Below are positions 25,139 through 27,206 of a stretch of DNA of 30,584 nt, in pieces (the stretch's first letter is position 1; every line of letters starts with the position of its first letter). The DNA is taken from assembly GCA_947628195.1 (NCBI GenBank), contig CANQZB010000001.1, positions 1-30,584 on the forward strand, given 5' to 3'. Source of the DNA: an uncultured Clostridia bacterium (GTDB lineage: Bacteria; Bacillota; Clostridia; Christensenellales; UBA1242). Made by a program: the position numbers and the translations under genes. The notes beneath the pieces were generated by a model. That model made no database searches, had not been told where the DNA came from, and saw nothing but the letters and a program-made list of their open reading frames with translations.

Positions 25139-26707
25139 ATGAAAAAAACAAAACGAATTTTAGCAACTGCAATGGCAGGTTTTTCGTTATTAACTTTGGT
25201 TGGCTGTGGAGGGGCTAAAAAATCACCTAACAACACAGTTCCTGAACAACCAAATGTTGAAAGCCCGGCAGATAACTCACTTCAAGAACAAATTGACGCT
25301 TTGCAAGATGCTTTAAAAGAAATGCAAAATCAGCTTAGTGATGCTCAAAAGGACATAGCCGAATTAAAAGAAACCGATAAAAACCTTTTGGCTTTAATTA
25401 ACACTAATATGGCAAGTTTAACTGAATCTTATAACAGCTTGCTAAAGCAAATTAATGATTTAAAGGAAAATCATGAGGCACTTTCTGGCGATGTTTCTGC
25501 ACTGCAAACACAATATAGCACATTAAATACGCAACTACAAAGTTTAACATCAAATTTAAGCACATTGCAATCCGTACTGGAAACTTTGCAACAAGACAAC
25601 ACAACTCAAACTTTGGTTGAAACAATTAAAGCGTTACAAAGCAAAATCAATTTGTTAACCGTTCAAAACGCCATGAGCTACACACTTAATACAAGGTACA
25701 ATTCCATTTCTGGTGGAGATAGCGCTTATGCTGTTAGGGTGAACGCAAATCCTAATGGTGAATGGTGCGGTTATTCTGAAAGTTACACATCACAATCTCA
25801 ATATTCATACGCAATAAGCTTGGATGGTTTTTGTTTTACAAACATAGATGGCGAACAAAAGGCAACGCAAGGCTATTCTTATACCGATATGTTTACACAT
25901 TATATTCATGCCAGTACAGGTGCAGAAAAATCTGGGAGCACTTACACATTAACCGGTTCAGAATTAACAAACGCAACTGTAACTTTAAACGATGAGGGAT
26001 ATGTTGAAAATTTTGTGGGTGAGCAAGGTGCAGAAAACCGTGTTTCTTTTAGTTTTACAGGTATTGATAGCAACCTATATAAATATGAATATGATAACTA
26101 TGTTGGTCATGTTCCAATTGTTAGTTACTATCAAACCGTATCCAATGCAATGGATGCAAGTTTTGACCTAAATTACGCCAAAATATCAGGTAAAATGACA
26201 GCGAATGGTGGTATAACCGGCGAAGCAATGGTAGTGGTTGGCAAGGGCAAATCTGCGCAATATCAAACAACAACAGAAGGAGAAAGTACATTTACAGGAT
26301 ATTTTGTTAATGAAAAGGGAGTATCGCAACAAGCATATACTGCAGAAAATGGAGAAATCACTTTTGATACATGGGATGAAAGTTCGGATGTTTCTGCTAA
26401 ATATATGGGTAAAAGTTTAAAACAGTCTTTATTTAGTTCTGAATTTACTATTAGTTTTGATCAAGATGCAAACACCTATACAATATCGCAAGAGGGTAAG
26501 CAATCTGTTACTGTAACTCTTAAAGAAGACGGCAAATTTACCGACTTTACAGCGATGGCCGCAGAAGAATATACCGGTTTCCCAGATCAAAAAGTAACTT
26601 ACCATATTGAGGGTCTGGATAAAGCAAAATTTGAAGAAGAATTTAAAGCAATTAAAGATAAGCTAGAAGAGTTAATTGAACAATATAATAGTAACCTTAA
26701 TCTTTAA
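25139..26707 (+). CDS. Lipoprotein with long coiled-coil stalk and beta-rich C-terminal region (522 aa)
   Basis: MKKTKR, a hydrophobic stretch and lipobox LVG-C23, then a Pro-rich linker. Heptad repeats run about aa 45-175 (LQEQIDALQDALKEMQNQLSDAQKDIAELK...). Confidence 0.88.
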   Translation: MKKTKRILATAMAGFSLLTLVGCGGAKKSPNNTVPEQPNVESPADNSLQEQIDALQDALKEMQNQLSDAQKDIAELKETDKNLLALINTNMASLTESYNSLLKQINDLKENHEALSGDVSALQTQYSTLNTQLQSLTSNLSTLQSVLETLQQDNTTQTLVETIKALQSKINLLTVQNAMSYTLNTRYNSISGGDSAYAVRVNANPNGEWCGYSESYTSQSQYSYAISLDGFCFTNIDGEQKATQGYSYTDMFTHYIHASTGAEKSGSTYTLTGSELTNATVTLNDEGYVENFVGEQGAENRVSFSFTGIDSNLYKYEYDNYVGHVPIVSYYQTVSNAMDASFDLNYAKISGKMTANGGITGEAMVVVGKGKSAQYQTTTEGESTFTGYFVNEKGVSQQAYTAENGEITFDTWDESSDVSAKYMGKSLKQSLFSSEFTISFDQDANTYTISQEGKQSVTVTLKEDGKFTDFTAMAAEEYTGFPDQKVTYHIEGLDKAKFEEEFKAIKDKLEELIEQYNSNLNL

Positions 26708-26708
26708 T

Positions 26709-26734
26709 AAAAAGCGGAAGTTTTCCGCTTTTTT
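26709..26734 (+). terminator. Intrinsic terminator
   Basis: AAAAAGCGGAA-GTT-TTCCGCTTTTTT. Confidence 0.85.
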
Positions 26735-26743
26735 GTTGCGTGG

Positions 26744-26824
26744 GTGGGGCTTATTCTGCGCCAGTGCGCAGAAAAATGGCAGAGCCATTTTGGCGCGAGA
26801 TAAATCTCGCGCAATAAGCCCCAC
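26744..26824. repeat. 81-bp four-way-junction (cruciform/cloverleaf) element with 12-bp terminal inverted repeats
   Basis: GTGGGGCTTATT [CTGCGC-CAGT-GCGCAG] A [AAAATGGC-AGA-GCCATTTT] G [GCGCGAGAT-AA-ATCTCGCGC] AATAAGCCCCAC. All pairs are Watson-Crick, and GC is 44/81. Confidence 0.85.
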
Positions 26825-26830
26825 ATTTGT

Positions 26831-26858
26831 TTGCCTTTTTAACAATTTGTGTTATAAT
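26831..26858 (+). promoter_or_regulatory. Extended -10 promoter for the Smr gene (leaderless spacing)
   Basis: TTGCCT (26831-26836), 16 bp, TG-T-TATAAT (26853-26858), then 6 nt to ATG 26865. There is no SD. Confidence 0.6.
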
Positions 26859-26864
26859 ATTTCC

Positions 26865-27206
26865 ATGCAGTTAATAACAATCGATATAAAAAGTAACAAT
26901 CAAACAGTTAGCGAGGCACTCGCGCAGTTTTTGGTTGAAGTTGACTCTTACAAAAAGGGTGGATATAAAGTTATGAAGGTCATTCACGGTTATGGCAGCC
27001 ATGGCGTGGGTGGGGCAATTAAAGTTGCATTTTTAAAAAAGTGCCAGGATTTAAAAAATCGCAAAATAATTTCCGATTACACCTGTTGTGATAAGTGGAC
27101 ATCCCAAAATGTTGTTCGTAAAATTGCAATAAATTATTGCCCGGATTTACTTGCAGATAAAGAACTTTATTTGTTAAACCCGGGTTGTAGCATTATTGTT
27201 TTGTAA
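26865..27206 (+). CDS. Stand-alone Smr (small MutS-related) domain protein (113 aa)
   Basis: ITIDIK..QTVSEAL..F...KVMKVIHGYGSHGVGGAIK...NPGCSII matches the Smr pattern (DLH-like first strand, IHG-G, NxG). The start is ATG 26865 rather than 26676. Confidence 0.85.
   Translation: MQLITIDIKSNNQTVSEALAQFLVEVDSYKKGGYKVMKVIHGYGSHGVGGAIKVAFLKKCQDLKNRKIISDYTCCDKWTSQNVVRKIAINYCPDLLADKELYLLNPGCSIIVL

Follow-up and report, generated by a model that had tools for sequence, protein, structure and literature searches.

Cloverleaf repeats: a lineage-restricted family of GC-rich nested palindromes in the intergenic DNA of AT-rich Clostridia

REP, BIME and REPIN sequences of Enterobacteria and Pseudomonas are GC-rich extragenic palindromes that are dispersed, lineage-specific, often placed at gene 3′ ends and able to fold on either strand (PMC2817692, PMC3733652). 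The REPs themselves are single imperfect hairpins of 20–40 bp with a GTAG-type head, present in hundreds of copies in genomes with a RAYT gene (PMC2817692, PMC3733652). Bacterial MITEs, such as bcr1 of the Bacillus cereus group, Correia and RPE, are short, non-coding, structured intergenic sequences with inverted termini, which carry target-site duplications, occur as near-identical copies and have a parent IS with matching ends (PMC3184786, PMC10969869). GC-rich hairpin formers also populate the spacers of small AT-rich genomes in mitochondria, as the yeast GC clusters (GC42 family, PMC4478555) and as the repetitive hairpin or double-hairpin elements scattered through the spacers of sponge and fungal mitochondria (PMC2800124). 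These are single or double hairpins with an AG target and many near-identical copies, and their complex forms are thought to arise by the merger of palindromes (PMC4478555, PMC2800124).

Here we analyse an 81-base element that resembles each of these systems and departs from all of them. Like REPs and MITEs, it belongs to a set of short, non-coding, GC-rich intergenic palindromes that are dispersed, specific to one lineage, often found at gene 3′ ends and foldable on either strand; as in the mitochondrial elements, the hairpin is kept, loops vary, a transposase is not known and complex forms may stem from merged palindromes. Unlike REPs, its relatives are nested palindromes of 68–96 bp with three inner hairpins and 5–9 copies per genome, with no conserved head and no RAYT found. 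We rejected REP/REPIN–RAYT membership on these grounds, given no RAYT in the source genome, three-hairpin units, variable heads and approximately 5–9 loci. Unlike MITEs, they show no duplication and copies that are only 50–65% alike, and no parent element was seen; unlike the mitochondrial elements, they sit in a bacterial chromosome, are few and divergent, and have a closed four-way junction as their unit. The T-shaped inverted terminal repeat of adeno-associated virus has an outer stem that closes back-to-back small perfect hairpins in single-stranded DNA, forming a three-way junction at the genome end that serves self-priming and Rep nicking; the cloverleaf differs in being a four-way junction inside a chromosome, without a Rep gene. 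Our literature search found no description of such a bacterial four-armed repeat family, which is apparently undescribed.

Fold and setting of the window element

The element lies in a 30,584-nucleotide stretch of contig CANQZB010000001.1 (assembly GCA_947628195.1), hereafter the window. The source genome (G000; 0.89 Mb, 117 contigs, 82% complete) comes from one rabbit-gut sample, whose four DNA runs, and no RNA run, were listed as containing this DNA, and belongs to a genus of AT-rich Clostridia with genomes of approximately 1 Mb whose relatives are likewise rabbit-gut MAGs.

Our analysis confirms that the four-way-junction fold of the 81 bases at 26744–26824 is real. This nested palindrome is assigned to neither strand and folds the same on both. 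Its 12-bp outer stem (GTGGGGCTTATT/AATAAGCCCCAC; 5′ half at 26744–26755, 3′ half at 26813–26824, the former carrying a GGGGCTT(A/T)T motif common to many other copies) closes three back-to-back hairpins, likewise without assigned strand. Hairpin 1 (CTGCGC-CAGT-GCGCAG, 26756–26771) has its sequence swapped by compensatory changes in orthologues, hairpin 2 (AAAATGGC-AGA-GCCATTTT, 26773–26791) has the A-tract, GC core and T-tract of a bidirectional terminator, and hairpin 3 (GCGCGAGA-TAAA-TCTCGCGC, 26793–26812) is unchanged in four of five orthologues. The only unpaired junction bases are A26772 and G26792. T26755 can pair with either A26813 in the outer stem or A26772 in hairpin 1, which allows one step of junction migration.

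Folded as RNA, the element has the four-way junction as its exact minimum free energy structure, at −51.2 kcal/mol (z = −8.95), a value that none of 200 shuffles equalled. With DNA parameters the two strands adopt the same fold at −34.9 kcal/mol (plus strand, z = −10.0) and −34.7 kcal/mol (minus strand, z = −10.3), with zero G–T pairs. The GC content is 54%, compared with 33–34% for the window and the genome. These values bear out an earlier note, made from the letters of the window, on the sequence, coordinates and architecture of the element, on the equal folding of its two strands and on its GC contrast with the surroundings. Its count of 35 mismatch-free pairs is slightly high: 34 are realistic, because a ninth pair in hairpin 3 would leave a loop of 2 nt, which is sterically unlikely.

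The element is set tightly between two genes on the plus strand. Upstream lies the gene of a 522-amino-acid coiled-coil lipoprotein (25139–26707), followed by a canonical intrinsic terminator of its own on the plus strand (26709–26735), outside the element. Downstream, a promoter-like site with an extended TG −10 box (TTGCCT-16-TGTTATAAT, 26831–26858, plus strand), whose −10 box is kept in relatives, precedes the gene of a conserved small protein of 113 amino acids (26865–27206, plus strand). The element begins 9 nt past the terminator and ends 6 nt ahead of the −35 box, and a pattern scan reproduced the placement between terminator and promoter that the earlier note had given. The same scan leaves the element itself unflagged as a terminator; the A-tract/T-tract form is confined to inner hairpin 2, and the outer stem is followed on its 3′ side by ATTTGTTTG. 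The −10 box stops 7 nt short of the ATG, so the mRNA of the small gene is probably leaderless, as judged from this spacing.

The sole annotation of the small gene is a weak, sub-threshold similarity to the Smr domain around a VIHGYGSHG motif (E = 0.0047, 17.5 bits against a cut-off of 25.7 bits), and the protein had no match in NCBIfam or the PDB. Its gene was found in 119 of 201 genomes of the taxonomic family and in all 8 genomes of the genus sampled in that scan, with elements present or not. The lipoprotein evolves very fast, with 46% identity in G068 and a 347-amino-acid version in its place in G220, although the adjoining ClpX is 97–98% identical. A genus without the element family has two tandem GC-rich mini-hairpins upstream of the promoter of its own copy of the small gene (GCCCC-TGTC-GGGGC and CCCCTCC-AA-GGAGGGG in G044, L041, approximately 60–120 nt upstream of the gene).

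Descent of the copy beside the small gene

Homologous copies accompany the small gene in five species. In G068 and G212 the element occupies the same position as in the source genome, between the lipoprotein terminator and the small-gene promoter, making the window copy orthologous in three species. In G221 and G232 a homologous copy that shares hairpin 3 and resembles the others in its outer stem stands at the far end of the small gene, 2–4 nt past its stop codon; the element is thus 5′ of the gene in three species and 3′ in two.

The earlier note had proposed looking for homologues and for covariation across copies, and these four MAGs supply both. In a structure-guided alignment of the orthologues, both partners differ in 12 pairs and no pair shows a change in just one partner, which exceeds all controls. 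Hairpin 2 is wholly different between the two arrangements (AAAATGGC compared with GCGGGC), and even the near-identical copies of G221 and G232 are separated by one clean double change, GCGTTGC/GCAACGC to GCGTTGT/ACAACGC.

Between G000 and G068 the element is 79% identical and the DNA of the small gene 78%; between G000 and G221 the values are 71% and 73%. Divergence at the rate of the neighbouring gene points to vertical descent with one local relocation, or to duplication followed by loss, and these identities indicate that the window copy is old and vertically inherited. Furthermore, a copy that diverges no faster than the adjoining coding DNA may be functionally constrained rather than selfish. 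The locus also occurs without the element: G231 and G211 keep the gene order and lack it, and G220, the closest relative (ClpX 98% identical), has no element at the small-gene locus, where the spacer measures only 56 nt.

Smr domains of MutS2 bind branched DNA. The element could accordingly be imagined as a locus-specific regulatory site of the Smr-like gene, for example a cruciform or junction bound by the protein that the gene encodes, and both the presence of a homologous copy beside the gene in five species and its divergence at the rate of the gene would suit such a site. We regard this as improbable. A functional link was not supported when tried, and a specific one is unlikely because the gene is widespread without the element, both among the genus and family genomes sampled and, at the locus itself, in G220, G231 and G211; most copies of the family adjoin unrelated genes, and the Smr assignment itself lies below threshold, with nothing from NCBIfam or the PDB to strengthen it.

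A dispersed family with a conserved fold

By sequence, the window element looks unique. A BLAST search of its own genome returned a single copy, the other matches being chance-level 14-nt stretches in coding DNA, and a search of 200 genomes of the taxonomic family returned only the G068 orthologue. By fold it does not. We scanned G000 for structures of 55–125 nt with a 7-bp closing stem, at least 78% of bases paired and simple branches only, and obtained six strict matches, all with exactly three branches (C1:26744, which is the window element, C93:2279, C97:592, C109:2709, C67:1085 and a tRNA-linked case on C21), of which five are clear family members. An additional copy lies at a contig end (C80:4594–4668). 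Structural scan and covariance models together give at least six elements of shared architecture in G000. Further copies, which the earlier note had suggested seeking, thus exist by fold, though BLAST gives one.

A control genome shuffled within 40-nt blocks yielded no structural-scan match. Together with the z-scores of about −9 to −10 and the compensatory orthologues in four other MAGs, this refutes a chance palindrome, and homologous copies at the same locus in independent MAGs exclude an assembly fold-back artefact, for which it could be said that Logan contigs of the source sample are short, fragmentary, low-depth pieces, one of which breaks off inside the element. The C80 copy sits exactly at a contig end, and such palindromes may break short-read assemblies, so that copy numbers in fragmented MAGs may be underestimates. 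The tRNA-linked site on C21 (5731–5980; L122:232–480) is of another kind: behind a tRNA-Arg(ACG) gene come a terminator and GC-rich hairpins that pair with the T-arm of the gene, and 172 nt farther downstream 21 nt of the tRNA 3′ end recur exactly as a direct repeat. From its sequence, this site resembles an att-site scar left by the integration or excision of a very small element.

To follow the family across genomes we used a covariance model built from four orthologues (R2) and a broader one (R3). R2 found more elements of the same architecture, with other inner sequences, in G068, G132 and G000. With R3, 9 of 64 species of the genus were positive, at approximately 4–9 loci per genome; the models scored none of 57 other genera in the taxonomic family and none of 149 other genomes in the class. 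Both fail to detect the copies of GGGGCGC type (C97, C109 and C67), so the copy numbers and the taxonomic range are lower bounds. G220 has one degenerate copy, and four genomes that are 94–98% complete (G256, G106, G157 and G231) gave no match even at E = 0.5. In a ClpX phylogeny the positive genomes group into three well-supported subclades within an unresolved polytomy that also holds negative clades, a distribution that would fit several gains or repeated losses.

We compiled 24 non-redundant elements. They are 68–96 nt long (median 79) with 54–79% GC, a median outer stem of 9 bp, median inner arms of 8 bp and hairpin loops of 3–4 nt, and 21 of the 24 have 0–3 unpaired junction bases. The window element conforms to this four-way-junction repeat family in having exactly three simple hairpins with no more than three unpaired junction bases, Watson–Crick pairing on both strands, a GC-rich island in intergenic DNA and several copies per genome. 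Paralogues have the fold in common and mostly not the sequence (approximately 50–65% alike within a genome), and the heads vary among GTGG, GGGG, GCGG and AGGG. The family therefore exists and is dispersed, and what it conserves is the fold, Watson–Crick-paired on both strands, rather than the sequence. This agrees with the earlier note in placing the element among intergenic repeats whose defining feature is the fold, and the dispersed, lineage-restricted and patchy occurrence is like that of selfish or mobile repeats. Two copies in G132 (L095:1470–1640 and L097:1470–1650) are embedded in longer GC-rich structured flanks and share an upstream motif, GTTGAAAGCTnGGnGACGGGG, and a further enclosing stem, which suggests composite, BIME-like assemblies.

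Copies have been gained or lost between close relatives. At the 3′ end of uvrC a four-way junction is present in G000, G068 and G255, and absent from G212 and G222; the elements there are 65% and 50% alike (random, approximately 48%), compared with 82% and 76% for the adjoining genes. The C97 copy is found in G000 only.

Constraint, mobility and significance

All 27 loci examined are intergenic, most of them between co-directional genes. About half start within 7 nt of a stop codon, and approximately nine independent loci do so at −4 to +7 nt, several as TAG|GGGC; others, the window copy among them, come after a canonical terminator, or are placed between divergent genes. In the GGGGCGC-type paralogues (C97, C109 and C67), as in the window copy, the central hairpin is built like a bidirectional terminator, and its similarity between paralogues shows that it belongs to the element.

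This placement raises the main rival to a DNA-level reading, a primary role as an RNA 3′-end module in untranslated regions that, made as part of the upstream gene's transcript, would block 3′-to-5′ exonucleases, or terminate or insulate transcription, making the family a set of functional terminator or stabiliser cassettes. We consider this possible and give it a good deal less than an even chance. About half of the loci start within 7 nt of a co-directional stop codon, there is no other terminator at C97, C109, C67 or G221:C64, several copies have a canonical A-tract/GC/T-tract terminator as their central hairpin and the fold is very stable as RNA. However, the window copy has a canonical terminator on its 5′ side and the next promoter on its 3′ side, divergent genes flank some of the copies, the outer stem has no consistent U-tract on its 3′ side, and termination at the central hairpin would leave the full junction untranscribed.

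The pairing itself also speaks against an RNA module, since G–U pairs are nearly absent and show no strand bias. Among 22 elements with an assignable sense strand there are 4 in 701 pairs in the sense and 6 in 701 in the antisense direction, and the folding energies of the two strands lie within a few kcal/mol. The loop motifs show no orientation relative to flanking genes; GNA triloops, counted on either strand, make up 12 of 30 triloops against 12.5% expected from a calculation not corrected for composition. In this strand symmetry the family is unlike ordinary structured RNAs, and the symmetry points to constraint on DNA or on both strands.

Mobility is at present unproven, and a REP- or MITE-like lifestyle would be assigned by resemblance. 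The earlier note had taken the flanks of the window element for a possible eroded target duplication, a reading that we could not sustain: their longest common word is TTTGTT (p of approximately 0.5), and no target-site duplication exceeds chance at this locus or at the 18 others among the 19 compared. No genome contained near-identical copies, and copies within a genome that are only approximately 50–65% alike give no sign of recent transposition. Filled-versus-empty alignments of relatives gave no clean empty site, the spacers being too diverged, and a non-exhaustive look found no parent IS with matching ends. Membership among MITEs, including bcr1, was rejected on the chance-level flank repeats and the lack of near-identical copies. 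Nor did the HUH (TnpA/RAYT) partner anticipated by the earlier note appear, as Y1_Tnp (PF01797) is absent from G000 and from eight of the nine element-bearing genomes. Its proposal of a new mobile element thus holds as far as a dispersed and patchy family is concerned, and finds no match in target duplications, an HUH/RAYT partner or signs of recent transposition.

The absence of the HUH Y1 transposase bears also on the idea of a recombination site that folds from a single strand, as integron attC sites and HUH substrates do, and is used by a site-specific recombinase or nickase. Structure kept without sequence, placement directly past stop codons and one or two unpaired junction bases would all be expected of such a site. 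We nevertheless hold it to be very improbable, as the two strands are equivalent, no RYYYAAC/GTTRRRY cores were seen in the element sequences and the copies stand beside housekeeping genes rather than in cassette arrays; for the same lack of R″/R′ cores and the same dispersal, integron attC was rejected as a class.

Searches of known RNA and mobile-element classes were likewise negative. ARAGORN found no tRNA or tmRNA in the window, Rfam gave no match at gathering score for the window or seven other copies and only noise at E values up to 10 (for example, an L20 leader on the neighbouring terminator), and phage and plasmid collections held no match to the element. Across 185,579 species genomes, the 20-mer of hairpin 3 (GCGCGAGATAAATCTCGCGC) occurs in three relatives, within a Microvirga gene and as single hairpins in Anaerolineae, KSB1, Melainabacteria, Algoriella and others. 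We did not take the distant matches for homologues, their number being about that expected by chance among very many 8-bp hairpins. In many Anaerolineae MAGs (L065–L090) this 20-mer is a single GTAG-headed REP-like hairpin, and in a KSB1 MAG (L071:7200–7450) it stands in a tandem array with compensatory variants, GGGATAAATCCC; by their sequences these hairpins are probably an unrelated REP family.

On balance we lean, a little beyond an even chance, towards the window element being one copy of a lineage-restricted, GC-rich nested-palindrome or ‘cloverleaf’ intergenic repeat family that is maintained at the DNA level with a REP/MITE-like lifestyle. Its unit is an outer stem of 8–12 bp, usually GGGGC…GCCCC, that closes three hairpins of 5–12 bp with almost no unpaired junction bases, and the constraint would act on DNA, or on both strands. 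Whenever strands separate, through replication, transcription or supercoil-driven extrusion, either could fold into a four-way junction resembling a Holliday junction. Perfect palindromy may be kept by selection for the fold, by arm-to-arm template-switch correction or by both, and copies would rarely spread through some trans-acting host function. Transcribed copies, typically right after a stop codon, may secondarily form a highly stable 3′ barrier or terminator module, and the window copy would be an old one that was inherited vertically in the spacer that separates the small Smr-like gene from the lipoprotein gene. Against this DNA-level reading, the approximately nine loci at stop codons, some with a terminator-like central hairpin, would also fit a primary RNA role.

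A bolder version, which we put forward only tentatively and think rather doubtful, would see cloverleaf repeats as a new class of mobile or self-maintaining DNA that is defined by its fold and lacks a transposase. The junction itself, formed from either strand, or as a double cloverleaf extruded from supercoiled DNA, would be the substrate for host junction-processing or template-switching machinery, which would copy, correct and occasionally relocate it, and streamlined genomes would have recruited copies as terminators or insulators that work in either orientation.

Structured intergenic repeats of the REP and MITE kinds are known in single-hairpin form, linked with a transposase; the cloverleaf family conserves a whole closed four-way junction, lets its sequence vary freely, has equivalent strands and shows no evident mobilising enzyme. 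Repeat finders that work by sequence overlook such families completely, as BLAST did here in seeing one copy, so they go unnoticed in genome annotation. Should selection or copying act on the fold, the family would offer a natural system for the tolerance, maintenance and use of junctions and cruciforms in bacterial chromosomes, and would bear on how perfect palindromes persist and how tiny genomes acquire terminators and insulators.
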